Below, piece by piece: positions 3,001-36,745 of a stretch of 42,439 nucleotides of DNA. The notes beneath the pieces were generated by a model, which was not told where the DNA came from, searched no databases, and worked only from the letters and a program-made list of their open reading frames with translations. The stretch is taken from positions 1-42,439 of the IMG/VR virus record IMGVR_UViG_3300049009_000475; one strand, 5' to 3'. The position numbers and the translations under genes were made by a program. The DNA comes from a virus. Lineage: Duplodnaviria > Caudoviricetes. Numbering within the stretch: position 1 is the first letter of the stretch; every line of letters starts with the position of its first letter.

Positions 3001-5500
3001 TTTCGGCAAAATCCTTGATACAATAAGGGGTCTAGAAGAACAGAGGGCAAAAGCAATTTCTGATGGAAACACAGTGGAAGCTGGTAAGTCCGCAGTATCG
3101 CTACAGGTCCAAGATGATCTAACTAAGCTATCTGCGGGAGCAGCCATAGTAGCAACCGCATTTGGGGGTCCTCTACTAGGTGCAGCGGTAGGATTTACAG
3201 TAAAGCTAGCTGGACTAATTCCGGGAGTTGAAACTGGAGTAGGAAAACTTAGAGATTTAGGTGCCGCTCTTGGAGTATTAGAGTCCACAGCACTAATTGC
3301 TGCTAGATCACAATCTGAAGCCGCATCAGTTGCTGCCGACTCTAATCGAGAGAAACAGGCTGGAATAGTTGGCAAAAAGATAGACAAAGTAAAAGATACT
3401 AAAGGTGCAAATGAACTAGTAGACTCTGGAGAATTTAAAAATGCGGCACAGGCTTTGGCTACCAAGAAAGCGGCTGTGGACAAACAAGTTGGAGAAGCAA
3501 GAAAAGCACTTAGTCAGCAGGCTAATACTAGTGGCTTAGGAGAGAGCATTGACGCCGTTACTAGTCTCGGTGGCCTGATAGGGGAGAATCTAGATGAAAC
3601 AGCCACGCGACTAGACAAAGAAATCTCAGATGCTCAGGCTGGACTAAAAGAACAAGCCGAAGCCGATTTTCAGCAATATAGTAAGGTGTTTGACGTTAAA
3701 GTGCAAGACTTTGCTTCGTCTGGAGAACAAGACTGGGGCAAATTCATGAGTTCGCTAAGCAAGGGCGAACAAGATCTCATAACGCTTTCTGGCAGTGCTA
3801 ATATTTTGCAAGAAAGTCTAAGACAAGCGGCGGATATCGCTAAAGCAGAAGCCGCTGAAAGGCTCCTCAATTGGCAGATCATGCAGAAAACCTCTGGTGC
3901 TCTACAACAGCTTGCGGCAGTATCAAAAAAAGGAGCAGAAGTTAATCGATTAGGAGACGTTTCCTCTAGTCTAGCATCTGGTAATTTTAGAAGCTCGGCC
4001 ATTTCTTCAGCCGCTAGTAGTGATTCAATTAAGCAGCAGGCTGTAGCGGCTAAAGCATTGGGCATCAATAATTATGAGAGCATCGTCGGTGAGACTAGCA
4101 AGAATAAAGATGTTCTCAAGAGTGCTGAAGACAAATTTGCTCAGGGGACCCTCAAGGGAGGCTCTGGGGAGCTAGACAGAATCAAGAGAGAAATTGTACA
4201 AGACGCGAACCCGGATGCTAATGTCAAGGACCTTAAAGGTGATGAGTTAAATAAGGCAGTAGAGGAGGTCTTCAAGGGTGGCGATGCAATGAAAGAGGCC
4301 CTAATGAAGGCCGCTCAAGACGCAGAATCCGGATTTGGAAAATATTTAGATTCAGTTAGTCGATTGACTTCTGCACAGACAGAATATGAACAATCGTTGC
4401 TCGATTTTAATCAATCTAGTACCAATAGAGACAAAGAGAAGCAAAGCTTTCGAGTTGGTGGATCTACGATAGCGGAAATTAGAGATAGACAAAAGCCTAT
4501 TGCGTCTAATGCTGCTAATAGAGCTGCTCTAATTTCTAGTTCGGCAAAGCTCACACAAGCTGGTACTTCTATTGTAGAAAATCAGGCAGCACAATCCACT
4601 AGTGGTAAAGAAGATCCAAGTAAAACTGCTGCCACAGTATCTCAAGGAATAGAGCTTCAGAGGACATTTTCTGGATTGCAGATAGCTGTAGATGCCCAAA
4701 AAGCAGCAGTAATGCAAGATACTCAGGCTAGACAACAACTTATCGAAGCACTAAAAGAAGAGATTGAACTAGAAAAAGGCAGGGCTCAGACTCTAGACGA
4801 ATTCAATACTGCACTTTCTGGGGCCGCTGGTGCTGAAGCCAAAAGAGACGCTCAGAAGAAACTAGCTTCTGTCAAGCGGGTAGAACAAGCCTATGCGACT
4901 GGTGGTGTTGAGGCCGCGAATAAAGAGATCGGTCGAAGTGTTGATAAGGGAGTCTCTAGAGAATTTTTACTATCTGCAATGCAGACTCAGACATCTGAAG
5001 CACTGGGCTATCAGGCTTCAGAAGCTGGGAGTACAGAGGCACGGAGGAGATACGGGGCTGGGTCTAATCAGAGTGGATTCATCGCTGACAGTAGCAGTGT
5101 GGCTTTTGGTACAGATGCCGAAGGCAAGAGGACTAAACAGACGATAAGAGGAGCTGAAGTAGCAGCACAAGCAGGAGCACAAATGGGTGAGCAAAAAGCC
5201 AATGAGGCGGCACTACTTCAACTACAAGCTGACAACATAGAAATGCTAAGCAATTCAGCTAAAATCTTTGGCGATTCTATAGTTCAAATGACGGCTGGTT
5301 TGGGAAGCTTCAACACTGAGTTAAAAACTATAGTTGCCTCTCTGAAGGATTCTTCTATTAGCATGAAGCTTGACACCACAAAAGTAGTCGTAGACATAAA
5401 TTCATCTCAAGGACTAGATGCTCTCTCTGCAGAGACCAAAAAAGTATTTAGACAGATGATTGCTGAACAATTGTTAGCACAGCAACAGGGACAAATTTAA
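83..5500 (+). CDS. Tail tape measure protein
   Basis: 1805 aa, Ala/Gly/Ser-rich and helical; N-terminal TP901-type tape-measure region (LAQAGYS...LNTVSKKYAV...TRESAETVATGLRTIFGRL); FASGGFVPGSGNGDTVPALLTPGEFVI motif typical of tape measures; central hydrophobic Gly/Ala segments. Confidence 0.93.
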   Translation: MAVYDVATRLVVQGVDTASVQRAVSTINTQLDRGTASARSFSDALALRGINLAGYTALGAVVVRVSASIAKATNDAIKFEYELAKIAQTVNKSNAEVLQHADSIRKISVAYGLSAPKIAETVRVLAQAGYSFKEAKASADSLSQTTLLSSFDNITDTTDGLIAINKQFTSTMGQSARVLSVLNTVSKKYAVESRDLVEATRKAGGVFASTGGNLEELVSIFTVVRDTTRESAETVATGLRTIFGRLQRPKTIEYLRELGIELTDLKGNFIGNYEAIRAIQEGIARNRIAPNSLQFAEIVEQLGGIRQQSRVIPLLTQAAKLQKIYSDAQSSTSDTAKDLAKAQETLSFKISQTQQNFSKFIGDIASTESFKVMISGILSVTNATIGFASALKELIPLIATIATVKLGTSLVRALGNPAAAFGNIGQKRKFASGGFVPGSGNGDTVPALLTPGEFVINKKSAEAFGYGELGRINKYAKGGVVSKIQKFAEGGKVDPDGLTQELRDLISEFKKKAPFLYKRGKSRLDLDGISENDLADLEAQAEQIRALLKKQSGKVHPDRFQGESGAADRFKSVRSKFDEFNAGTEQIKKKRATAAPNPASSPVNSAEQAKRAQEAYDQAQAQKTQQQREDDKKAAEATARATAEEARRTREEYKEKERKFNAQNGGLGGANGDSTSHPDDLGAASARQRAYNRSQESAGLGPAEGNTKSRADDFDTASARQKAYNTSQENAQNAGLGPARGNTSSSRPTNIATPGMAAKQAAYNTSQEAAGLGPAIGNTASKPIDIGAIGDKLTTDKAAAAKAAERSQQLAGTFATLSFVIAGVADQYTDQETVMGRMTSSVLNLISGLSLLQATLGQFGKSLDPKSVLDFGKNLLKFNTGGKGAIAGKIANASSGFLGKAGGALSGLGGKLSGVGAKFAGSTGALGIVGKASASAGASLTARGATVAGSSGSVGAAGASAAAFAAAGAAAYGFGKILDTIRGLEEQRAKAISDGNTVEAGKSAVSLQVQDDLTKLSAGAAIVATAFGGPLLGAAVGFTVKLAGLIPGVETGVGKLRDLGAALGVLESTALIAARSQSEAASVAADSNREKQAGIVGKKIDKVKDTKGANELVDSGEFKNAAQALATKKAAVDKQVGEARKALSQQANTSGLGESIDAVTSLGGLIGENLDETATRLDKEISDAQAGLKEQAEADFQQYSKVFDVKVQDFASSGEQDWGKFMSSLSKGEQDLITLSGSANILQESLRQAADIAKAEAAERLLNWQIMQKTSGALQQLAAVSKKGAEVNRLGDVSSSLASGNFRSSAISSAASSDSIKQQAVAAKALGINNYESIVGETSKNKDVLKSAEDKFAQGTLKGGSGELDRIKREIVQDANPDANVKDLKGDELNKAVEEVFKGGDAMKEALMKAAQDAESGFGKYLDSVSRLTSAQTEYEQSLLDFNQSSTNRDKEKQSFRVGGSTIAEIRDRQKPIASNAANRAALISSSAKLTQAGTSIVENQAAQSTSGKEDPSKTAATVSQGIELQRTFSGLQIAVDAQKAAVMQDTQARQQLIEALKEEIELEKGRAQTLDEFNTALSGAAGAEAKRDAQKKLASVKRVEQAYATGGVEAANKEIGRSVDKGVSREFLLSAMQTQTSEALGYQASEAGSTEARRRYGAGSNQSGFIADSSSVAFGTDAEGKRTKQTIRGAEVAAQAGAQMGEQKANEAALLQLQADNIEMLSNSAKIFGDSIVQMTAGLGSFNTELKTIVASLKDSSISMKLDTTKVVVDINSSQGLDALSAETKKVFRQMIAEQLLAQQQGQI
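2078..2440 (+). repeat. About 3.5 degenerate copies of a ~33-aa repeat inside the tape measure gene
   Basis: ASARQRAYNRSQESAGLGPAEGNT / ASARQKAYNTSQENAQNAGLGPARGNT / MAAKQAAYNTSQEAAGLGPAIGNT, preceded by a partial GLGGANGDS copy. Confidence 0.85.
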
Positions 5501-7119
5501 TGCCAATCATAGTAAACAACAAAAGAATTGTACCAGCTCCAATAGTGAGTTTTTCTAAGACACCTATTCTGTCTGATGATGGTATTAGTATTGGGGCAGA
5601 CTACACCTTATCACTAAATGGGAAGATTCTTCAGAACAAAGGGAACCCTATATCAAGTACTGGGGCTATATTCAGTTCTTCCATGTCTACTGATGCGTGG
5701 ACAATTACTCAGTCACCAGATGATGATCCGCTCCATGGAGTCGCTGATTCTGATCTGCTCATTTCTACAATAACAAAAATAGAACAACTAAGAGCATTAG
5801 TCTCACCACCAACTGGCATAAAAGTTGAAGTAGTGGGCTTCAGTCACGACCAAGGTATCAAGTTTTATGGAGACTTAAAATCTTTTAACGTCGACTCTGA
5901 AGGTAATTGGGCGAAACCGGCTAACTACACTATGGAGTTTGGTTTTTCAAACTTTATTGGACCTGCCATATCAGGACTTTTCGGAGCTGGCTCCTCAGAA
6001 GACTCATTCGGCTACTACGTAGCATCAGTAAAAGAGAATTGGGCAATTCAAGAAGCCGATCAGGTCGTTGTCAATACGGGCAACTGGGCCGATATCGGCA
6101 AGGTCTATAACATCACCCACTCAGTAGATGCTAAGGGTAAGAGAGTCTACAATTCTTCTGGGGTATGTGTTCTGCAGCCTTGGCAGCAAGCAAGCGGGTA
6201 TGTAGGGGCGGTTATCGGCCTAGGCATATCAAATCTGCCAGACAGCCTATTGGGCATAACCTCTGGATACTATGCCACCAATCACAAAATTAGCGAAAGC
6301 ATAGACAGAACTGCTGGCACATATGGTGTAGAAGAGACATTCTCGTATGTTCCTTCTGGGATGATGCCGTCTGGGCAGTGGGCGTTTGAAGAATGTTCTG
6401 TGAATATTGATAAGTCCGAAGGTGCTCTTACCAATATTACAATTCAGGGAACAATTAATGGAATTGAGACCAACCCTCCGACAGGAGTGCAGGCTACTGG
6501 TGTTTCCAAATACTCAAATGCTTTAGCTTACTACAATGTGATTGAGCCAACCCTCTATAATAGAGTTAAGCAGAATGCTGGCGTACTTACTTGGGTTCAT
6601 CCATCTCCCAAGACTACAGCTATCGGAAAGATGCCGAATGCTGGACAGATTACCTATAGTTACAGCTATGATGATAGGCCACCTAATCTTATTAGTGGGA
6701 GCATCTCGGAAGAGATATCGATAAACGACACTTATCCGGGTCAGATTTATTCAGCCACTCCAGTGATAGGACGAAATCAGCCCATTTTGCAGTATCTCGG
6801 ATCAAGGACTGAGTATAAGAGGACTTTGTCAATTAATATACAAATGGGGTCCATTTCTAGGAACTGGACATACAGTAATGTTGACGCTAGTGGGAAATTG
6901 ACATCTCCTACAGCAACTGGTGTTAGAAATTGGCTGATCACTCAAAAACCGAGCATTAGCCACTCTGGAGATTTTCAGGTTATTTATGATGCGGCCAATC
7001 CGGCCAATGAGGCTGGAGTAATACCTACTAAGGTTTTCTATGATGCACCACAAGAGTCATGGAATCCAAAATCAGGTAGTTACTCATATAGTATTAATTG
7101 GTCATATGAAAGAAGTTAG
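5500..7119 (+). CDS. Putative tail structural protein (distal-tail/tail-tip position)
   Basis: 539 aa, beta-strand-like Ser/Thr/Tyr-rich composition; TAATG-coupled directly to the tape measure stop. Confidence 0.6.
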   Translation: MPIIVNNKRIVPAPIVSFSKTPILSDDGISIGADYTLSLNGKILQNKGNPISSTGAIFSSSMSTDAWTITQSPDDDPLHGVADSDLLISTITKIEQLRALVSPPTGIKVEVVGFSHDQGIKFYGDLKSFNVDSEGNWAKPANYTMEFGFSNFIGPAISGLFGAGSSEDSFGYYVASVKENWAIQEADQVVVNTGNWADIGKVYNITHSVDAKGKRVYNSSGVCVLQPWQQASGYVGAVIGLGISNLPDSLLGITSGYYATNHKISESIDRTAGTYGVEETFSYVPSGMMPSGQWAFEECSVNIDKSEGALTNITIQGTINGIETNPPTGVQATGVSKYSNALAYYNVIEPTLYNRVKQNAGVLTWVHPSPKTTAIGKMPNAGQITYSYSYDDRPPNLISGSISEEISINDTYPGQIYSATPVIGRNQPILQYLGSRTEYKRTLSINIQMGSISRNWTYSNVDASGKLTSPTATGVRNWLITQKPSISHSGDFQVIYDAANPANEAGVIPTKVFYDAPQESWNPKSGSYSYSINWSYERS

Positions 7120-12397: not shown

Positions 12398-15300
12398 ATG
12401 GCTGACATGTTTAACGACTGCCACGAATGTGGCAAGAATTGTATTGAGACAGCCTTCTGTTCAGAAGGTGCTTCGTTTGATAATAGTCAGACTGGTGGTA
12501 TCTCAGTACCAAGGAACCTAAAGGTTAAGGTCATTGCTAACCCAGCCTTCTGGGGATTTGAAGGGGTATTAATTTCTGGATGGGCCAGATATGAGAATGG
12601 TCACTTTGACTACTTTGATGGGTTTCAAGAGTCGCACCTAGCCGAGAGAACCTGTAACTCAATAACTTACGGGCCGTTCATGAATGAACAAAGGCCAGAC
12701 GTTCTATACAGGTCTGTTTTTGATCCAGATGGAACGAAGCACTATGGAAGCGACGGAACCCTTGATGGGGTGGAGAGAGGAGGGGCAGAGGTTTATCTTA
12801 TTGATAGAGCGGCTGGAGAAGTTGAGCCCGTTTCTGCGGATAATCCATCATGCGATACTACAAAGCCGACCCAAGTATTCAAGAAATTTCCAGAAAATTA
12901 TGGCTTTGGCAACAAAATAAATTTCAAAGAATCTGTCTACAAAAATGCCACTGGCGCATGGCGTATGACGTCTCTTGAATCATGCTATGAGTCCACTATC
13001 TCTAGCAACTATCACGTAAAAGAGTGCGACGACACATACAAAGAACACTTTATCCACGATGATAATTTCGGAACTCAATATGATCCAGCTTCTGTCAGGG
13101 TTAGTGGGGCCAGAGACTGTCTCCCGGACGGGGCAATGGCTGGCAGATATGCTGGAGATATTAAGCCAACTGGCTCCATCATCAGAGACACTGGGGTCTC
13201 CTATTTGGCCGCTGCTACCATAAATTACAATGGAGGAGCTGCGTCTGGTCTGAAGGAGGGGATGGTACTCTCTTTTACTGATGTCGGCCCGTATAGTAAA
13301 TCCTATCACATTCACTCTGTTTCTCATTCTGGCTCCTACACCCGCGTAGAGCTTCTAGGGACATGGGGCACAAATAACGAAACAGTAAATGGAAGTGGGT
13401 CTTGGGTCGCTCATAACACATACGATCCATACACATGCTGCGGTGGTGCCGCTTATGGCGTAGATAATGATCTGAAGCAATTCTCTAATCAGGTTCAGTA
13501 CCACTCAGATTTTGGCAAGATCTTCAATAATAATAAGAATAAGATTCAGTCTAATAGATTCCCAGAGAACAGATACACCTATCAGGCCGATACTGTATCC
13601 CCAATAAGTTCTGGATATCGTAAGGACTATTCTTATCCTTCAGTTTCAGATAGCGGGACCGTGGAGATGTCTAGTGGAGTCCCCGTATTTGAGAGGACTT
13701 TACCATACTATGGGCCATTTTTCGAAGTGGACTTGTTTGATTCACAGACTCGGCATGATAGCTCATATAATACGACTATTGGTCGTAATGGTACTTGTTA
13801 CTCTAAAAAAGCGACCCTAGATATCTTCCCGGATTGTGTAACTCAGTTCATCCAATATGATGAGTGTGTTACTGAGACAGATCTATACAGCACCAATAGA
13901 CTACAAAGATTGGCTTTTGTCTATCGCGGCTGCGACTTTGCCGATGATTGTTCTTTTGATGGGTCTGGTAGGCCAATAGCTGGATGGAGCGGTGGAGCCC
14001 CGACAAATATACAGGACCTAAAGAGAGGATTGGCTGGCCAAGAATTGTACATGTATTTAAATCTCAGCACAGCTTGGGGAGGCGTCATAAAGAGATGCCC
14101 TTGCGATTGTAGCGAGGACCCACCAGCGGGAGAACTGCCGCCTACGATGGTTCAAGTGCTATCACCAGTATCTTTTCCTTGCCTTTTAGCATTTGATCTA
14201 CACCCCGAAGTGTATGGATGTCATGATACTAGATATCAAGTATCTAAATATAAAGAGTATCTTAGCACATCATTTTCACATGAGCTATGTGATCCATTCC
14301 CTGCACTGCCAGAAGCATGTAATGTTAGACAGCCATATACGACATATGGCTTCATGAGGAATCTCTGTGGTAAAGAGAGCAGAGACAGAAAAGACGTGAT
14401 CACTTCAGCGTTTGCCAATTTGCATCAAAACGGAGAATATAGAAATTCTACTCCGTCCGTAGATGTAGATGCTCCCATGTATTGGGAGTTTCAGAATTAT
14501 GGACCAGAGCCTCCAGTTTTTGGCTCTGGTGATTGGAATGGGGCCACTAGCGACAATGGGAAATTTCATGACTCTGGACTGTATCCATATTGGGGATTAT
14601 CTGACCAAAATGGGGCACTAGTAAGCCCATATTTTGCTGCCAAGAGTGGAGAATTTCTCTGCTGCCCAACTGATAGCCCGACTAACTATGTCGATTTTGA
14701 TGGCTCTGGAACATTCTTTAATGGCTGGCCTACTGACCGTGTTCCATTCTTGATCGAAATTGACCATGATGATATGTGTGCCGGATGCGGCACCGTGACA
14801 ATGGAAAATAGAGATCTCATGCTGACACTTGAAGGCATGGATACAAAATACCTTCATAACTTAGACTACAGTAGCTCTACTGGCGGTAAGTATGGCTACA
14901 ATAATTGTAAGTACAAGGGGGCAGTATTAAATCCAACATATAATTGTGCTAGTGGATATAGCCCTTCGTACTGCTCATCTGGGGATTCAATCGCTGCAGA
15001 ATATGGTCAGCCATATACTGGGAGTACATGTGCATGCATAGATGGAACAGAGATTCCTCTACGAGTGAAAACTATAGCTGGTAGCAATCTTGTAATTGGT
15101 TGGCAGTCTAGTGGAGTCAACAACTCGTTTGTCGAGATATCTGGATGCAATGATATGGCATCCAATTATATCATAGAAGACTACTTCCCAGCGGCTCCAG
15201 CGGGCTTATTGGTATATGGATCTTTCACTCTAGCCTGTGCTGAAAATATACCATATGTTACTGAGCCCTCTTTTCCATTTTCTTTTTACACTGGAGATTC

Positions 15301-17848
15301 AGTATCCAACTTATGGTCATGCTCTGATGGTAGTTGTGTAGAATCGTACCCGGCCCAAGATGGCAACCTGACTCTGCGAGCTAAGTTCTTCGTAGTTTCC
15401 CAACCTATGCGTGCTCAGTTTGAAGCACTGACCGAGCAGGAACTTCAAGGATTCTCTGGCTCAGACCCTGCAATAATCTTAAGAGATGGTATCAAGGTTG
15501 GTCCGCCAATTAACAATACCGCCGCTAACATAACACTTTGTTCCGGAGAAAAAGTATTCCTTTATGGGTGTGCTATTGGTGGATCTTTCTACCCATGTGC
15601 TGGATGTACTCCAGAAAGTGTGTGTGTTAGTTGCTCTGGTCAGGGCGTAGTGTGTGATAGTTGTGACGAAGTAGTATCTGTAAACGGCGTTGCAACCAGA
15701 AGAGTTCCTGCTCATTATGAGCTTAATGCTTGTAAATGCCAGTGTTCTACTCCTACTCTCATGAGAGAATATGACGTAACAAATACTGGGCTCGTACTAG
15801 CTGTTAGCTATGAGCCTTATGGATGTGTAGGCACCGGCTACTGGATATCGATAAGTGGAGCAAATAGAGTAACGGACCCATTCTTGATTAACCCATCTCC
15901 ACCATATGTACACATTGGAGTTGGGCCATATACTAATGATGCTATTAGCTATTGCTCATATCATACTGGGCCTAATGCTGAAGTCGATAACATATACTAC
16001 AAGTTCACGGAGCCGTCAAAAGATGTAGACTGCTTACATCTTACCCCAGAGACTTGTAATACGGGACCATGCTTAGATGAAAGAGCCTCATCTTCTGTCT
16101 GTGGTGATCCAGTTCCTTTTACTGGGGTCCCAGCAAGTGGTCTGACGGTCAATAGAAGATCGTGCTTCCCAGAAATTATGATAGTCAACAAGATTGACTG
16201 CTTAGCTACTGGATATGCTCTGCATGTATCTAGAGAGTACCATTCTCATGATAGGACTTGGAGAGATTCAGAAATAGTAGATCTTGAACCAACGTGCGTC
16301 ACTAGATATGGGGCCTACAATGATGGAGTATCCTGCACTCAGATTCCGTACGCTGTACCATCAGATTCTGTAACACCAGCTTATGACGGGCCATGCGATA
16401 TCCATCCAGCTTCTGGCGAATTCGCCAATCAGGACTTTCAATATGACACTCTGTGGAACTACTTCAATCTGTACTACGCGAGCGGAGTCCCGTCTTCGTA
16501 CTATAAAGCCTCTGTGAGCCCAACAGGGTGTGAGATCTTGACAACCCCTCTCGATACAACTGTCATATTTGGGACTGGCGAGCCGAACAAAAGACATAGC
16601 TGTATTCAGGACATAGGTGAATGTGGTGGGGACTTTTTCTGTAACAAGATGTTTTTCCCTAGAAGAAATTATGCTAGTGGCACGAAAGTTACAGCATTTG
16701 GAGCACTGTCTATCTGTACCCAGAATGCCCAGCACAAAACTCCAAGCTGGTATAGCGGGTATCAGAGCTTTGATCAAGTCCCCAAAGTCCTCTCTGAATC
16801 ACTATTGGGTAAGCTTATAGATCCATGTGATCCAGATATGACTGCTACGACCATGTATGACATGGGAATAGATGATACGATCATATATGTAGATGACTAT
16901 TTGCCACTTGTCGGTATTTCTGCCCCAAGCTTTAGAAGTACTATTGATGTTAAATCATGTGTTATCGCGAAGAGTGGGGAAGACTGCAACGTCACACTCC
17001 CAATGACACATACTGATGCTACTCTTGGTGTAGCATTTAATGGACCATCTACCCTGATTCAAGACGGCGTTGATTCTATGGGCTACTTTACCAGTACAGA
17101 AGCTTCTGGTAGCAACAATTGCCTATTCAACAAATTTAAGATCTTTGTAGATGTGGAATGTTGTCCAGACAGAGTTCGGAGAGTTAATAGCACCTTAGAC
17201 AGCCCGACAATGCTGAATTACGTCTTTACAGACGTGAATGCTGCTGTCTGTAATGGCCTAGTAACCGCTCCAGCTTGTGCATGTGCTGGGTCCACATGTG
17301 GAAGCTCTTTTGTAGATCCCGGTGTATGTACCGCAGTAAAATTGATAACTGAGGTGTATGGGAAAATCGAATGTAGTGGGGTTGAATACGCTGGCGGGTT
17401 CCCTATCTATCTCAATAGAGCCTTAATTGATTATGACGGAACCGCTGTTAGGGCGTCGACCGTGTCTCAAGGCAGATTGGATTGCGATCACGAACCATAT
17501 CCGCTGGAACTATATGAGTCCGACTGCGTCTCGGGTGTATTCGCCGTAGAGGAATACTCAATCAGAACTTGGCAATGTGGTGACGTGGTTTATGGTAATT
17601 TAGAATCTGCCAAGCAGAGAGATTGCTGTGACATTGTAGGCTATAGTAGATGTAGCGTGATCGCGTCAGGAGTGAAATTTGGGGTTGATGCATCTTGTGT
17701 ATTCATGGACTCACACATCAGCGGGGAGAGTCTCACAGACGTAAATGCGGGCTGGAGAACAAAGTGTGACTGTACATCGGTACTAGGAGACGAAATGCCT
17801 TGCTCTGATGGCTCTATGATTAAGGCCACAATTACTGAATTAATATAG
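12398..17848 (+). CDS. Large cysteine-rich virion protein, candidate tail fibre / receptor-binding protein
   Basis: 1816 aa; about 85 Cys by hand count, with CxxC, CxC, CC and CxCxC groups; last large gene of the tail operon. ORF is certain, function inferred from position. Confidence 0.55.
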   Translation: MADMFNDCHECGKNCIETAFCSEGASFDNSQTGGISVPRNLKVKVIANPAFWGFEGVLISGWARYENGHFDYFDGFQESHLAERTCNSITYGPFMNEQRPDVLYRSVFDPDGTKHYGSDGTLDGVERGGAEVYLIDRAAGEVEPVSADNPSCDTTKPTQVFKKFPENYGFGNKINFKESVYKNATGAWRMTSLESCYESTISSNYHVKECDDTYKEHFIHDDNFGTQYDPASVRVSGARDCLPDGAMAGRYAGDIKPTGSIIRDTGVSYLAAATINYNGGAASGLKEGMVLSFTDVGPYSKSYHIHSVSHSGSYTRVELLGTWGTNNETVNGSGSWVAHNTYDPYTCCGGAAYGVDNDLKQFSNQVQYHSDFGKIFNNNKNKIQSNRFPENRYTYQADTVSPISSGYRKDYSYPSVSDSGTVEMSSGVPVFERTLPYYGPFFEVDLFDSQTRHDSSYNTTIGRNGTCYSKKATLDIFPDCVTQFIQYDECVTETDLYSTNRLQRLAFVYRGCDFADDCSFDGSGRPIAGWSGGAPTNIQDLKRGLAGQELYMYLNLSTAWGGVIKRCPCDCSEDPPAGELPPTMVQVLSPVSFPCLLAFDLHPEVYGCHDTRYQVSKYKEYLSTSFSHELCDPFPALPEACNVRQPYTTYGFMRNLCGKESRDRKDVITSAFANLHQNGEYRNSTPSVDVDAPMYWEFQNYGPEPPVFGSGDWNGATSDNGKFHDSGLYPYWGLSDQNGALVSPYFAAKSGEFLCCPTDSPTNYVDFDGSGTFFNGWPTDRVPFLIEIDHDDMCAGCGTVTMENRDLMLTLEGMDTKYLHNLDYSSSTGGKYGYNNCKYKGAVLNPTYNCASGYSPSYCSSGDSIAAEYGQPYTGSTCACIDGTEIPLRVKTIAGSNLVIGWQSSGVNNSFVEISGCNDMASNYIIEDYFPAAPAGLLVYGSFTLACAENIPYVTEPSFPFSFYTGDSVSNLWSCSDGSCVESYPAQDGNLTLRAKFFVVSQPMRAQFEALTEQELQGFSGSDPAIILRDGIKVGPPINNTAANITLCSGEKVFLYGCAIGGSFYPCAGCTPESVCVSCSGQGVVCDSCDEVVSVNGVATRRVPAHYELNACKCQCSTPTLMREYDVTNTGLVLAVSYEPYGCVGTGYWISISGANRVTDPFLINPSPPYVHIGVGPYTNDAISYCSYHTGPNAEVDNIYYKFTEPSKDVDCLHLTPETCNTGPCLDERASSSVCGDPVPFTGVPASGLTVNRRSCFPEIMIVNKIDCLATGYALHVSREYHSHDRTWRDSEIVDLEPTCVTRYGAYNDGVSCTQIPYAVPSDSVTPAYDGPCDIHPASGEFANQDFQYDTLWNYFNLYYASGVPSSYYKASVSPTGCEILTTPLDTTVIFGTGEPNKRHSCIQDIGECGGDFFCNKMFFPRRNYASGTKVTAFGALSICTQNAQHKTPSWYSGYQSFDQVPKVLSESLLGKLIDPCDPDMTATTMYDMGIDDTIIYVDDYLPLVGISAPSFRSTIDVKSCVIAKSGEDCNVTLPMTHTDATLGVAFNGPSTLIQDGVDSMGYFTSTEASGSNNCLFNKFKIFVDVECCPDRVRRVNSTLDSPTMLNYVFTDVNAAVCNGLVTAPACACAGSTCGSSFVDPGVCTAVKLITEVYGKIECSGVEYAGGFPIYLNRALIDYDGTAVRASTVSQGRLDCDHEPYPLELYESDCVSGVFAVEEYSIRTWQCGDVVYGNLESAKQRDCCDIVGYSRCSVIASGVKFGVDASCVFMDSHISGESLTDVNAGWRTKCDCTSVLGDEMPCSDGSMIKATITELI

Positions 17849-17858
17849 GAACAAGGAT

Positions 17859-18338
17859 ATGACAGAAGACAAACCCAAGACACCATGTGAATGCCCTTTG
17901 GCTGGATTCTGCAACAGGCATCAGGTAGATAAAACTCCACACTGGCATAAGCTATGTCAGAATCATATGGGGTATTTTAATGCATGGGAAAAGTGCATGG
18001 GGCCGGGGCAGAACCAGTCGCAATGCGGTAAAAAGGAAGTGACCCAAGGGGCTCCTCCGGAGATTCCAGTCGCTCAGCAAGGCTCTCAGCAAGGCTCTCA
18101 GCAGCCACAACAGATGCCAAGCTTGTTCACTCAGGCGGCTAACTTAGCTAAGTCGGCTGCTAAGCACGCTCTAAGCGGAGGGGCAAATGTATCTCCAGAA
18201 CAGAAACAGGCACGATTAGATATTTGTTATGGTTGCGACAAATTCGTTAAAGAAACCATGAGGTGCTCGGCTTGTGGATGTTATCTCAACACTAAGACCG
18301 AATGGAAGACATCGTCATGCCCACTAGGAAAGTGGTGA
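17859..18338 (+). CDS. Small two-domain Cys-rich protein (C-terminal DUF6171-like domain), candidate fibre assembly factor
   Basis: N-terminal CECPLAGFCNRH...LC; Gln/Pro linker; C-terminal RLDICYGC...RCSACGC...SCPLGKW, resembling DUF6171-type proteins; AAGGA directly upstream of the ATG. Confidence 0.65.
   Translation: MTEDKPKTPCECPLAGFCNRHQVDKTPHWHKLCQNHMGYFNAWEKCMGPGQNQSQCGKKEVTQGAPPEIPVAQQGSQQGSQQPQQMPSLFTQAANLAKSAAKHALSGGANVSPEQKQARLDICYGCDKFVKETMRCSACGCYLNTKTEWKTSSCPLGKW
17900..17922 (+). repeat. Left arm of a 23-bp imperfect inverted repeat (partner 19259-19281)
   Basis: ggctggattctgcaacaggcatc versus reverse complement of 19259-19281 ggctggattctgcgacagacatc: 21/23 identical. Confidence 0.85.
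18073..18102 (+). repeat. 12-bp tandem repeat (2.5 copies) encoding QQGS-QQGS-QQ linker
   Basis: ctcagcaaggct ctcagcaaggct ctcagc. Confidence 0.8.
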
Positions 18339-19307
18339 TGGATGGTATACCGTCATATTATCCATGCATAAAACAGTCTTTCCAGTAGCTTTGAAAATTG
18401 TCTTAGCCTGAACCTCACTAGATTCGCAGAATGTGCTATAGCCAGACTTAGCAAAATGCTCTGCCTTCCAGAGGCCCACTTCCTCGTGGGTGCCAGAATC
18501 ATTCTCTGGCCACATTATCAGATCTTTGATACGGAATCCAGAATCTGTTAGCCATTTTTCCGTTTGTGGCCGATACTTCTCCAGCCTGCCGGTAACAAGA
18601 GACAAGGGGTATTTCACTGGATTATTCTGGGTTCTCTGCATTGATTGTAGGGTCTTCAAATACAATTCTTCGTTTTTACATTCTTCTTCTGAAAAGTCGC
18701 GACACAAAACTCCATCAATATCATACATGATTGGAAGACAGTTAAACAAATTCCACTCAAAGAAATGTAGTTCATAGCTTTTTGCGTAAATATCTAGTGA
18801 TGCTCTAGTTATGCTATTGGAGTAAATAGCGACTCTGACGATCTCATTGCCGACCACTGTCTTTAGATGGTCATAGCACTCCTTCATTGCTAAGCCACTA
18901 CATGAAGAGTCATCGACTAGATAGATCTTTTTAGATCCAAGGCCTATTTCCTCTGGATCGACTATCCTCCTGCCTGAGCCTACGTCAGTAAAGTCAAGAG
19001 TTTTTCGACTCATTGAGTATAGCGGCAAATGCATACTAGTCGCGAGAATAGATGCTGGTAGCATGCCAGATCTTGGGATTCCAACTATAATGCTGTTTTG
19101 ATCTATACGAGGAATTATTGACTGAGTATCTTTGACAAGATCGGCAGTTGATATCAATCTCTCCTGATGTTTCAGCCCGTATACGATCTTATCGTAATAC
19201 TCGCGGTATTGCCAATCTGACCTACATAGCCTAACTTCCTTTATGTCTTTGTCTCTTAGATGTCTGTCGCAGAATCCAGCCTTGAAACAATTACACGGCT
19301 CTATCAT
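18324..19307 (-). CDS. Cys-domain + type I phosphoribosyltransferase + HAD phosphatase fusion
   Basis: IVGIPRSGM and PRPP-binding KIYLVDDSSCSG; HAD motif I YDIDGVL and motif II VTGR; N-terminal CNCFKAGFCDRH...LC. Start moved to ATG 19307 (MIEPCNC), overlapping the upstream stop. Confidence 0.8.
   Translation of the reverse strand: MIEPCNCFKAGFCDRHLRDKDIKEVRLCRSDWQYREYYDKIVYGLKHQERLISTADLVKDTQSIIPRIDQNSIIVGIPRSGMLPASILATSMHLPLYSMSRKTLDFTDVGSGRRIVDPEEIGLGSKKIYLVDDSSCSGLAMKECYDHLKTVVGNEIVRVAIYSNSITRASLDIYAKSYELHFFEWNLFNCLPIMYDIDGVLCRDFSEEECKNEELYLKTLQSMQRTQNNPVKYPLSLVTGRLEKYRPQTEKWLTDSGFRIKDLIMWPENDSGTHEEVGLWKAEHFAKSGYSTFCESSEVQAKTIFKATGKTVLCMDNMTVYHPSPLS
19259..19281 (-). repeat. Right arm of the 23-bp imperfect inverted repeat (partner 17900-17922)
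   Basis: gatgtctgtcgcagaatccagcc on +; reads gct gga ttc tgc (AGFC) in frame on -, the same phase as the left arm. Confidence 0.85.
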
Positions 19308-19527
19308 ACTTTTGGACCTCTTTAATGGCCTGAATTCCATCAACCATCGCTTCTAGATACTCTCGCTGCAAAGACATGAAGTGCAAATGTCTCCCATCGG
19401 ACTGCCTTAGAATCGGCTTTTCCCAGTTCATGGTATTAAAAGTCTGTTCGTCTATCTCCTGCTCGATCAGATCAGAGATCATAGCAGACCCATTCTCACA
19501 CTTAAAGATCAATCTGTAGTATTTCAT
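19291..19527 (-). CDS. Hypothetical protein
   Basis: 78 aa; AGGA upstream of the ATG; fills the gap between the terminator and the PRTase-HAD gene. Confidence 0.7.
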   Translation of the reverse strand: MKYYRLIFKCENGSAMISDLIEQEIDEQTFNTMNWEKPILRQSDGRHLHFMSLQREYLEAMVDGIQAIKEVQKYDRAV

Positions 19528-19545: not shown

Positions 19546-19576
19546 AAAACAAAGGGCCGGGACAAAAGCCCGGCCC
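19546..19576 (-). terminator. Rho-independent terminator
   Basis: On -: GGGCCGGG-CTTTTGT-CCCGGCCC (perfect 8-bp GC stem) followed by TTTGTTTT, 25 nt after the stop of 19602..20198. Confidence 0.88.
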
Positions 19577-19601
19577 CTCTGGATATTGCGAACCAATAGG
19601 T

Positions 19602-20234: not shown

Positions 20235-20897
20235 CTATCGCCAGTCCGTATAGACTTTGATTGACTCGTCAATCTTAGTCTTGTCGTTTGTTAACTCTGT
20301 TAACTTCTTGATCATCTTTGCTGCTGTATCTCTCGTCACGTCGTAAATGCTGCGATATTGCTTCTCCCCAGAGTTAATAAAGGCGACAACATTGATGTCA
20401 AGCTTCTTACACTTACTATCAATGAAACTAATTTGTTCATTGGAGACTTTCTCCACGGTTTCTTCGGCCACAATTTTGGCCACATCATTTTTACTAAGCT
20501 CTTCTGCGGAACACTTCTTAAGCTTTAAAGCCTTGCGGAGGGCTCTTCCCTCTGCTCGGGTGGAGGCGGTCGCTACGGCGTATCCGCAGAAGAGTGCGTC
20601 TGTGTTACCGTGCCATACGTCAGCTACTTCAGAGTACTCTCTGGTGGTGCCACCAGAGTTCCAATCGAATACTACAGTGTATACCACAGTAGCTCTAGAA
20701 GGACCATTACCCTCTGATGGAAACACCTGAGTTGGGCCGCTCTGGACAATTGGTCCTAGGAGTAGTTCGGCCACTCTGCGGAGCCCAGCGGCATTGGGAT
20801 GCCCATCCTGAAGCTCATTCGGGACAAACTGAGACATCGCATAGGCGTCCCACTCTGGCGATAAATAATCTGGAACTTTCGCTTCTTCAGTGCTCAT
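20235..20897 (-). CDS. Rad52/Sak/Erf-like single-strand annealing protein
   Basis: Beta-beta-beta-alpha pattern ending in AVATASTRAEGRALRKAL...SAEEL, plus a small C-terminal helical domain (SNEQISFI...TRDTAAKMIKKL). Confidence 0.65.
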   Translation of the reverse strand: MSTEEAKVPDYLSPEWDAYAMSQFVPNELQDGHPNAAGLRRVAELLLGPIVQSGPTQVFPSEGNGPSRATVVYTVVFDWNSGGTTREYSEVADVWHGNTDALFCGYAVATASTRAEGRALRKALKLKKCSAEELSKNDVAKIVAEETVEKVSNEQISFIDSKCKKLDINVVAFINSGEKQYRSIYDVTRDTAAKMIKKLTELTNDKTKIDESIKVYTDWR

Positions 20898-27213: not shown

Positions 27214-27287
27214 TTTTTACTCAATTCTGCTTAAAGAAAGCGTATCTATGTTAGAAAGTACTTCATTACACATTAGGAGTGATAGAA

Positions 27288-28352
27288 ATGCCAAAAATAG
27301 TTGACAAAAACAAAATTCTTGAAATGTATTCCTGCGGGGCATCTCTAAAAGAGATCGAAGAAGAAACCAAATACAGCAGAACAACTATCCTGAAACACCT
27401 GAAAGCCAGCAATATATGGGTTAGCAAATCCGAGCAGGATAAAGAAATTTTGAGAAAGTATATTGATGAGGGAAAATCTATGGCACAAGTTTCTAGAGAG
27501 ACTGGACTCTGTAGGAATACGATATCCTATAGACTCAATGTAAACAACGCCGAAATTAGGTCCAATGAAATTGACGGACACGAAGTGGTCGAGCTATACC
27601 ATTCTGGCTTGCTTATATCTGAAGTCGCCAAGGCTGTAGGATGCAGTGCCAACACAGTCACAAGCAAGTTAGTAAATTCTGGCCTAGTACCAGATAATCA
27701 TCTACTGAAGATAGACGACAAAGAGCTACTAGATACGTATACGGGATATGGAAGCTTGACAAAGACCGCTGCCCATTTCAGGGTCTCTACTCATTTCATC
27801 AAAAAGAACTTAATAAAGAACGGCATAACCGTCTTTAGGCATAAAAATTGGGATGCCGCAGATACTCCGGAAGCTATCGAATTATATAGGCTTGGCATGT
27901 CGACTGCAAAAATAGGAAGGAAATTTGGCTTCAGTCATACAACGATAATCTCTGAGTTAGAAAAGTCTGGAGTCCAGCTAAGAAAAAAGCATACAGAGGC
28001 GGTCAGAGGATCTGGATATTCAAAAATTTCAGACTCGTTTATGGGTCGGATAAGGACTGGAGCTAGCAAAAGAGGTTTAAGCTTTGAAGTAGATAGCGAC
28101 TTTCTTTTTTGTCTTTTTTCCTCCCAAGGGGGGAAATGTAAACTTTCTGGGGTTGATATATCTTTGCCGAAAAATTATTCAGAATTTAGCTTAGGCGATT
28201 GCACAGCTTCACTAGACAGAATTGACTCCTCCAAAGGATATACAAAGGATAATGTGCAATGGCTTCACAAGTCGGTCAATGTGATGAAAAATGCTATGTC
28301 CGATCAGGAGTTCATCTCTTGGTGCAGGAAAATATCAGACCTCAACCCTTAG
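27288..28352 (+). CDS. Multi-HTH HNH-like endonuclease (probable free-standing homing endonuclease), antisense to its neighbours
   Basis: Five tandem HTH units, then QGGKCKLSG...ASLDRIDSSKGYTKDNVQWLHKSVNVMK. AGGAG at 27275-27279 favours ATG 27288 as start. Confidence 0.85.
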   Translation: MPKIVDKNKILEMYSCGASLKEIEEETKYSRTTILKHLKASNIWVSKSEQDKEILRKYIDEGKSMAQVSRETGLCRNTISYRLNVNNAEIRSNEIDGHEVVELYHSGLLISEVAKAVGCSANTVTSKLVNSGLVPDNHLLKIDDKELLDTYTGYGSLTKTAAHFRVSTHFIKKNLIKNGITVFRHKNWDAADTPEAIELYRLGMSTAKIGRKFGFSHTTIISELEKSGVQLRKKHTEAVRGSGYSKISDSFMGRIRTGASKRGLSFEVDSDFLFCLFSSQGGKCKLSGVDISLPKNYSEFSLGDCTASLDRIDSSKGYTKDNVQWLHKSVNVMKNAMSDQEFISWCRKISDLNP

Positions 28353-34119: not shown

Positions 34120-35163
34120 CTAGGCGAGCAATGATCCTAGCTCCTTCTTGAGGAATTCACTAGCCGATGGAGTAGACGAGATGAAGTCATAGACTTTCTG
34201 TTGTCCCTGAAACTTCTGCTCGGCTACCGAGGCTAGATCTGGATGCTCGGCCAAGTACGGAAGAGTAAACCACGCTCCGGCCTTTTCGATCAAGCCAAAG
34301 GATTCGCCAAGCTCAATGAACTCCTTAGTGCAGTCAATGCCATGGCCGAATCTTAGATAGGAGGTTACTGTGTTGCCACTAGCACCCATTGCTGAGCAAC
34401 TAATGTCACATGTAGTCTTCTGGCCTATCTTTTTACCGTTTTCTTCCCATGGTTCTACGTGAGTGAAATCAAGCCGATTGTCAGCCTGATACTGCACCAT
34501 AACACCACAGTCAGCAACTTTATGCTTACCGTACCCACTAGTATTGGTAATGTAGTGAGTGATAAGGATCATGAGAATATCATTTCTCACGACAACCTGA
34601 GCGTTCTGCTTGACCCAATGTGACAGCATCTTTGGTAGCTGTGCTCTGAGCTTAGAAGAAACTTCGGCATCCATCTCGTCCCTTGGGAGCAGTGATGAGG
34701 TGGAGTCAATCACACATACACATCCTCTGTTTTTGGGCAGACGGATCATAGCATTGACAGCATTAAGTGTGTCTTCGGCAGAAAGATCTTCATCCTTACT
34801 GCTGATGACTTCAATCTCTTTTCGGTCAAGGTTATGGATTCCGGCAAGGTTGTACATCTTAATGCGGCTTTCAGCGTCCGCATAGATGCCCCTACGGCCT
34901 TGTGCTTGAGCATTCGCAATAAGTTGAAGGCACAAGCTTGATTTACCGCATTTTGGAACTCCAGAGATCACCGTCCAACTGCCTTCGAGGATGCCTCCAT
35001 TTAGACCCAGATCATAAGCAGGACTAATCCCAATACATTTCTTGTTGCACTTTTCATCAAAGATATCAGTGCCACTACGGATGATGTCTCCGTACTTTTT
35101 CTTGATAGCGGCCATGCCAATATCGCCCGGATCAATAATTTCACTCTTTGCTTTTTTCGCCAT
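34120..35163 (-). CDS. recA: RecA/UvsX-like recombinase
   Basis: DLGLNGGI; Walker A GVPKCGKSS; YADAES; Walker B VIDS; FGHGID; IEKAGAWF. Confidence 0.92.
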   Translation of the reverse strand: MAKKAKSEIIDPGDIGMAAIKKKYGDIIRSGTDIFDEKCNKKCIGISPAYDLGLNGGILEGSWTVISGVPKCGKSSLCLQLIANAQAQGRRGIYADAESRIKMYNLAGIHNLDRKEIEVISSKDEDLSAEDTLNAVNAMIRLPKNRGCVCVIDSTSSLLPRDEMDAEVSSKLRAQLPKMLSHWVKQNAQVVVRNDILMILITHYITNTSGYGKHKVADCGVMVQYQADNRLDFTHVEPWEENGKKIGQKTTCDISCSAMGASGNTVTSYLRFGHGIDCTKEFIELGESFGLIEKAGAWFTLPYLAEHPDLASVAEQKFQGQQKVYDFISSTPSASEFLKKELGSLLA

Positions 35164-36428: not shown

Positions 36429-36745
36429 TATTCGCCCTCGATGTACTTGATTTTTTGTTTTTCGGTCATATTGTTGATTGCGTTGATCTCTTTGATCTTC
36501 TGCTTAGCCGCCACCTTGCGGTCGTTTGCCTCGCTCTGTAGAGAAGATCCGGCCTTCTTGGTATTCTTCTCTGCTAGTTGGCCAAGAGTCCGGATAGTCT
36601 TGACTTGGCCCATAACAGGAAAGATTAGCCGCTCCAGCCCCAGCTTATTGCACTTTGGGCACTTCCTTTTTACCGGATCTTTGACGCCCTGATAAATCTC
36701 AAACTGATGCTGGCATGCGGAGCACGCATATTCGTATTGTGGCAT
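36428..36745 (-). CDS. FmdB-family zinc-ribbon protein
   Basis: MPQYEYACSACQHQFE...KRKCPKC...LERLI; start at ATG 36745 (TAATG coupling), not 36874. Confidence 0.88.
   Translation of the reverse strand: MPQYEYACSACQHQFEIYQGVKDPVKRKCPKCNKLGLERLIFPVMGQVKTIRTLGQLAEKNTKKAGSSLQSEANDRKVAAKQKIKEINAINNMTEKQKIKYIEGE

Follow-up and report, generated by a model that had tools for sequence, protein, structure and literature searches.

Paralogous Cys/His modules on two facing phage genes probably account for an in-phase inverted repeat beside an exchangeable cargo slot

Does an in-phase inverted repeat near the 5' ends of two facing phage genes mark a segment that flips, or does it record the kinship of the proteins encoded on either side? 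The question is raised by the window, the 42.4-kb phage fragment analysed here as a whole, whose + strand carries a tape-measure gene and four large unnamed genes and whose - strand carries genes of replication and metabolism. At the meeting point of these two arms, gene A, a conserved gene of the phage family, and gene B overlap tail to tail by 15 nt (A ends at 18338, B at 18324), as the original prediction had described (Table 1). That prediction proposed an invertible cassette, either an active switch possibly driven by the phage RecA or an annealing protein, or the scar of a past duplication or inversion. Its labels for the two gene bodies, PRTase-HAD and DUF6171-like, are correct, since B yields phosphoribosyltransferase and HAD folds and the DUF6171 match of A lies above its cut-off. 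The start of B needs correction and is most likely the ATG at 19307 (327 aa), given a Shine-Dalgarno-like AGAGG just upstream and the agreement with homologue N-termini. The reading we prefer, and hold to be fairly probable, is that the repeat consists of paralogous modules and very likely does not flip, that B is an exchangeable cargo slot, and that both enzyme bodies compared in this slot are predicted to add a furanose to a phage-made glycan.

Table 1. Features at and around the junction of the two arms, in window coordinates.
Feature	Position	Strand	Description
1816-aa cysteine-rich protein	12398..17848	+	86 Cys (4.7%); final large gene of an arm whose first gene is the tape-measure gene
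Gene A	17859..18338	+	159 aa: N-terminal Cys/His module, low-complexity linker, C-terminal DUF6171 / phrog_13558 domain
Module copy in A	17883..17993	+	37 codons compared
Left arm of the 21/23 inverted core	17900..17922	+	Residues 14-22 of A; candidate short conversion tract
DUF6171 match (PF19668)	18207..18335	+	Residues 117-159 of A; 29.1 bits against a cut-off of 27
Gene B	18324..19307	-	327 aa: module, type I phosphoribosyltransferase, HAD phosphatase
Exchanged cargo interval	18340..19188	-	Without blastn match to the two closest relatives
HAD phosphatase domain	18345..18740	-	About residues 190-321 of B; DxD at 196
Type I PRTase domain	18741..19169	-	About residues 47-189 of B; PRPP-loop-like VDDSS at 131
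Module copy in B	19188..19298	-	37 codons compared
Right arm of the 21/23 inverted core	19259..19281	-	Residues 9-17 of B
78-aa gene	19291..19527	-	Conserved, no known family; overlaps the start of B
Terminator-like hairpin	19551..19579	-	Upstream of the 78-aa gene; consensus match only

The repeat has the form that was first described. The two N-termini align without gaps over 37 codons (from 17883 and 19298), with 15 identical residues and 59/111 identical bases, the core is identical at 21/23 positions in a shared codon phase, and a computed crossover within it leaves open frames of 332 and 154 aa, so that the proposed in-frame chimeras are indeed possible. The longest exact run between the arms is 13 nt, a length at which the window contains 37 inverted exact matches, plus one unrelated 16-mer. 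Inverted matches of at least 21/23 number two in the window and one in 12 Markov controls together, and the repeat exceeds random-sequence expectation. The other of the two, found by searching the window for further copies of core quality, pairs 18026-18048 with 36653-36675 through a 16-nt exact run, with no protein context noted as common to the two sites. Once the protein sequences are taken as given, the excess at the DNA level is modest: the same codon is used at 10 of the 15 identical residues (6.5 expected; P 0.056), and recoding by codon usage gives 21/23 in 0.6% of 20,000 trials. For the suggested comparison of synonymous identity between core and flanks, the same codon is used at 5/6 in the core (P 0.036, for a window picked afterwards) and at 5/9 in the flanks (P 0.40). 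Judged from these alignments, the inverted repeat arises from two related copies of one module on facing genes.

This module comprises roughly 40 N-terminal residues with the pattern C-x-C-x5-C-x-R-H-x3-K-x7-C, and a profile search for it returned 722 clusters (50% identity). Among the best 150 of these, C5, C7, C13, H16, K20 and C28 are invariant, suggesting that the module binds metal, and it is N-terminal in 141. No Pfam, PHROG or NCBIfam model covers the N-terminal module, it lies outside the aligned range of the gene B fold matches, and the Atlas gave no usable lead for it or for the 78-aa protein, whose predicted complex with gene A scored 0.01. Partner domains among the best 150 clusters include a DUF6171-type domain (31), an Erv1/Alr-like group (22; Pfam match in 7/41 scanned, 4 of them over the cut-off), GT2, GT4, methyltransferase and several small unnamed domains; since the majority are small and non-enzymatic, docking of glycan enzymes would not be the module's sole use. 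Fusions to Erv1/Alr-like sulfhydryl-oxidase domains occur in the unplaced proteins P0190, P0195, P0208, P0283, P0291, P0225 and P0233 and might reflect a role in forming disulfides in cysteine-rich phage proteins; an Erv1/Alr search of five related records gave no match, nor did it in the controls. A literature search returned no paper on DUF6171. In the accessible parts of the papers found, phage work joining Erv1 with glycosyltransferases concerned giant viruses only, that on phage islands held nothing on this locus, and a moraphage paper described a different lineage.

Relatives were sampled regardless of orientation by searching with the 78-aa gene as anchor, giving 73 loci, of which 72 were classified by layout and one (L098), being without the anchor gene, was set aside. 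In 17 of the 72, gene A occupies the tail arm and faces B, which is the layout of the window; it lies on the tail arm without B in 21, and behind the 78-aa gene without B in 30; B is visible with A out of reach in one locus, and no module gene is in reach in three. Many loci are duplicates or near-copies, and the first three layouts comprise 12, 14 and 18 distinct anchors, respectively. The inverted layout that had been predicted, with B on the tail arm, occurs in 0/72, all 17 loci with both genes are oriented as in the window (0/17 inverted), and the orientation is the same in the window, L022 and the L094 fragment.

Read evidence was taken from the assembled contigs of four (X1-X4) of 20 listed runs, X1 possibly being the run from which the window derives. 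An X1 contig (15500-19524) and an X2 contig (17313-19630) pass unbroken across both arms in the window orientation, and X3 contigs cross each arm in that orientation. No strand-change joint was found in the assembled contigs of any of the four runs, a limit that applies only to a common inversion, because contigs drop rare forms. Smaller variants were seen in the same data: in run X4 the B body is present at 18588-19018 as two alleles, which show 8 and 51 differences in 431 nt, and there is a joint at 18323-18332, and a short tandem repeat in the gene A linker (18073-18101) shows 12-15 nt deletions in runs X2, X3 and X4.

The absence of an invertase, conceded from the outset, is borne out among the 41 ORFs of the window, a genome fragment reaching 17.8 kb to one side of the locus and 23 kb to the other. 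Integrase and resolvase families (PF00589, PF00239) were found in 0/5 related records that are 44-86% complete, with controls positive in 14 and 12 of 14. The suggested annealing protein (20235-20897) has no family in Pfam, PHROG or NCBIfam beyond a weak unnamed PHROG. A lone + gene within the replication arm (27279-28352), with numerous HTH repeats and one end resembling endonuclease VII, is probably a homing endonuclease.

Between the arms of 11 other genomes that carry both genes, the best 23-nt stretch reaches 10-18/23, the mean being 15.1/23 within genomes and 14.6 across genomes (the comparison excludes L081, whose module has an insertion, and loci that are duplicated or cut), and the DNA core is not conserved in relatives. 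In a module tree of 45 columns with unsettled bootstrap, all 20 of the A modules fall together (99/97) and away from the 24 B modules, so far as this short alignment resolves them, placing A-type and B-type modules in separate groups. Both genes also have their own start and ribosome-binding site, so an inversion, exchanging only about 14 and 9 N-terminal residues, would switch nothing on or off and would only shift the genes between arms. The layouts, the arm-spanning contigs, the lack of a kept core and the separate module groups do not support an active switch, and the repeat is very likely not one. The weaker version of the original prediction, a scar of past duplication or inversion, fares better than the live switch: the arms are paralogous, A stands flipped in one clade lacking B, and the core carries a pattern resembling patch conversion.

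For the extra DNA identity of the core, a one-off patch conversion from B to A and coincidence are about equally likely. The former supposes that a single past pairing of the arms in the window lineage copied about 23 nt from B into A by gene conversion without crossover, and we give it an even chance. At informative core sites, the window A gene follows B at 10/10 positions when compared with its sister L026 and at 9/9 with L050, whereas outside the core it follows the sister at 40/46 and 40/45 (permutation P at most 5e-5). Of 24 core bases, 12-13 distinguish it from the sisters and 2 distinguish the sisters from one another, and L051, the sole other PRT-type locus, has the second-best arm pair, 18/23. 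On the other hand, the core residues of the window A gene equal the family consensus, so the sisters may be the derived ones, and a tree of A minus the core leaves the relevant fork unsettled. A distant A gene (L059) matches the window core at 20/23 and another at 19 (51 distinct cores), cross-genome pairs of A and B reach 20/23 in 2/132, and the core is the most constrained part of both proteins, at a site picked for standing out. Such a conversion adds to the explanation by module and slot and does not replace it; if it took place, the arms paired once and left no inversion.

In an unrooted tree built from the anchor and the end of the large late protein (36/44 deduplicated loci; 8 lacked enough tail sequence), the flipped layout occupies one side of a single branch with support 100/94, which points to one old flip of the whole A gene in a lineage without B; the flipped genes retain A-type N-termini. 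At L002, L005-L012, L015 and L024, where A is flipped (~6001-6450), its stop often abuts that of the large late gene, and L016 carries a GIY-YIG/NUMOD3 homing endonuclease (5163-5930) between the large late gene and A. One might suppose that B itself arose by inverted duplication of A at the junction, the present layouts resulting from loss of the left copy, loss of the right copy or fusion of the right copy to an enzyme. This scenario, which we regard as possible although doubtful, accounts for all three layouts, and it agrees with the place of A in the flipped clade, exactly where B stands in the window, directly behind the 78-aa gene, and with the confinement of the module to this junction in 5/5 related records. 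Against it, a locus with two A genes appears in 0/72, the flipped clade falls among A-only lineages and not beside B-bearing ones in the unrooted tree, and module-enzyme fusions are common elsewhere, so that B could have arrived ready-made.

What changes at the junction, on the preferred reading of paralogous modules and cargo slot, is the body of B. The window matches L001 (the same contig as L026) and L050 at about 73% DNA identity up to 18339 and again from 19189 (blastn), and between these flanks both relatives carry a WbbM/GT111-like transferase body together with a UDP-galactopyranose mutase. The B module is kept across the change, with 28/39 residues as in the window; P0035 (PRT-HAD) and L026 (GT) share 34/39 module residues although their bodies are unrelated, and the module tree shows two or more changes of body type on well-supported branches. 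Gene B thus reads, from comparison of its alleles, as a variable cargo slot in which the module stays and the enzyme body is exchanged between phages. The GT allele, from a model of middling quality (pLDDT 71.6), matches 6u4b_A, the WbbM N-terminal fold, over residues 7-264 at 14% identity (Z 11.3, which is 2.6 above the next row; rmsd 3.6, 184 aligned). DUF4422 scored 21.5 and 19.9 bits, below its cut-off of 25, and gave no match in five other GT-type alleles; a bromodomain, found only in weak rows of a sequence-profile search of solved structures, was rejected for this allele. A mutase is present in 11/17 GT-type loci and in 0/55 others, many of the 55 being short, and is absent from the fetched DNA of 6/17.

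The junction also carries cargo genes resembling methyltransferases and glycosyltransferases, on one arm or the other, and on the tail arm cargo enzymes occur either behind A or before it (L022, L051, L080). At L051 (460-2464), the module of A departs from the A consensus at its N-terminus, and A and B are separated by a methyltransferase-like gene. L013 (7592-12209) carries an epimerase, a DegT aminotransferase, a B12 radical SAM enzyme and a dTDP-sugar epimerase directly upstream of the 78-aa gene. In L044 and L068, a tRNA-like sequence, recognized by eye, lies about 90 nt upstream of the anchor (5001, 3220), where other relatives have a hairpin.

The body of B in the window is modelled with confidence (pLDDT 91.4) and has the fold of a type I phosphoribosyltransferase with, behind it, that of a HAD phosphatase. 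The former matches 4z1o_A (Z 15.0, rmsd 2.9, 146 aligned), the best matches being purine phosphoribosyltransferases, and the latter matches 5uj0_B, the T4 Pnkp phosphatase (Z 12.4, rmsd 2.8, 119 aligned); the matches listed comprise purine and orotate phosphoribosyltransferases and HAD enzymes. The type I PRT loop suggests that PRPP is used. A search for the PRT-HAD family returned 3629 matches, of whose best 120 this module is carried by 15, a looser version by 21 and another Cys-rich N-terminus by 19. Bacterial homologues without the module stand among glycosyltransferase and polysaccharide genes in 3/3 annotated plasmid regions, two of them near-copies (a fourth region, without annotation, was left out of the count). 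A direct search for B in viral contigs gave no match, neither A nor B had a full-length match among named phage records (the C-terminal domain of A alone matched, in 42), and a GTDB genome search yielded a single match, on a 1.8-kb contig in a MAG.

Several characterized systems resemble parts of this arrangement. PRPP-dependent ribofuranosyltransferases are described in Klebsiella O4/O7 (gPRT-PRP), Hib (CrpP-CriT) and Campylobacter jejuni (Cj1432) in the accessible portions of PMC11231755 and PMC12096443. These enzymes, as far as those portions describe them, also join a PRPP-using transferase to a HAD phosphatase, a likeness that rests in B on fold and motif and extends to the glycan gene clusters of its bacterial homologues. 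They differ from B in that the phosphatase precedes the transferase in the Hib and Cj1432 proteins (accessible text of PMC12096443), whereas B has the transferase first, with a type I PRTase fold; no structure of any of these enzymes is among the matches listed for B in sequence or fold searches. The alternative allele is likened to GT111/DUF4422 by its best fold match and adjoining mutase, and is set apart by its low identity and sub-threshold Pfam score, its phage-borne location and its fusion to the Cys/His module. For gene A, the likeness to DUF6171 / phrog_13558 covers the C-terminus only and not the N-terminal module. Mycobacteriophages, according to the part of PMC12619734 available, glycosylate their virions with phage glycosyltransferases. 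Phage-encoded glycan enzymes near structural genes are common to that case and to this locus, which differs in being known from genes alone; that part describes neither an N-terminal module held in common nor a slot open to exchange.

The slot may work as follows. Alleles would be exchanged by recombination between co-infecting phages, with homology supplied on one side by the 78-aa gene and the module and on the other by the 3' end of A. By analogy with the gPRT-PRP enzymes, the window PRTase-HAD would move ribose-5-phosphate from PRPP to a sugar acceptor and then remove the phosphate, and the GT111-like allele would transfer galactofuranose, made by the linked mutase, from UDP-Galf, so that with either allele a phage-made glycan is predicted to receive a furanose, ribose in one case and galactose in the other. 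The module would bind metal and dock the enzymes on what they act upon, the likeliest candidate being a virion structure made of the adjacent cysteine-rich protein. This 1816-aa protein has no family match in Pfam, PHROG or NCBIfam; a homologue adjoins the junction in relatives and flanks the slot in all layouts, and its position suggests a tail or virion appendage. L047, L084 and L092 are relatives in which it is split in two or three. The virion is the preferred target because A follows this late gene and because virion glycans have been reported in other phages, in the available part of PMC12619734.

The slot enzymes could instead act on phage DNA, through sugar hypermodification, or on host surface glycans, the module then being a nucleic-acid- or membrane-targeting zinc finger, which we think unlikely. 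Gene B does stand on the replication-gene arm, with GT1, GT2 and nucleotidyltransferase genes upstream, its HAD domain is closest to polynucleotide-kinase phosphatases, and the same partly available paper (PMC12619734) reports modification of DNA and of host serotype by glycosyltransferases of phages. Nevertheless, the other module gene, A, follows the cysteine-rich late gene, cargo enzymes also occupy the tail arm in the three loci named above, in the window a terminator-like hairpin stands between the replication genes and the pair formed by the 78-aa gene and B, and no base-modifying enzyme was found among the ORFs of this genome fragment.

Comparison with Mu G and P1 C also bears on the last alternative. 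Inversion of Mu G uncovers a silent allele. This locus resembles both systems in its tail-to-tail genes and in-phase inverted repeat near 5' ends beside tail genes, and differs in that no recombinase was found, the exact match is short and not conserved, orientation does not vary, each gene has its own start, and the two bodies do not represent variants of a single protein. Programmed gene-altering inversions with tail-to-tail genes and repeats near the 5' ends are surveyed in PMC9881135, in the accessible text of which some lack a nearby recombinase. A recombinase-free segment flipped at the 23-nt core by the phage RecA (encoded at 34120-35163) or an annealing protein would suit this geometry, the in-frame products, a core above codon expectation (P about 0.006) and a gene A that works on either arm in the family, yet it is highly improbable in view of the fixed orientation, the unbroken contigs, the equal arm identity within and across genomes, the short exact match, the empty recombinase searches and the lack of any silent allele to turn on.

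Combined into one picture, the module would be a docking tag for swappable sugar enzymes at a cysteine-rich virion protein, the furanose cap would vary between ribose and galactose by swapping, PRT-HAD would be a second ribofuranosyltransferase class on a purine-salvage fold, and patches would be exchanged without a recombinase; as a whole, we consider this conjunction rather improbable. The analysis nevertheless removes a plausible false inverton, since an in-phase inverted repeat of facing genes can stem from a shared protein module. It leaves an unnamed module present in at least 722 clusters, and a locus whose natural alleles indicate what an uncharacterized enzyme may do: because a GT111-plus-mutase allele stands at the position of PRT-HAD, the proposal that PRT-HAD adds ribofuranose becomes a direct test. 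The PRT-HAD family is large and occurs in bacterial polysaccharide clusters as well. If the proposal is true, it would represent a further route to ribose in glycans and a source of sugar-coat variation for aquatic phages.
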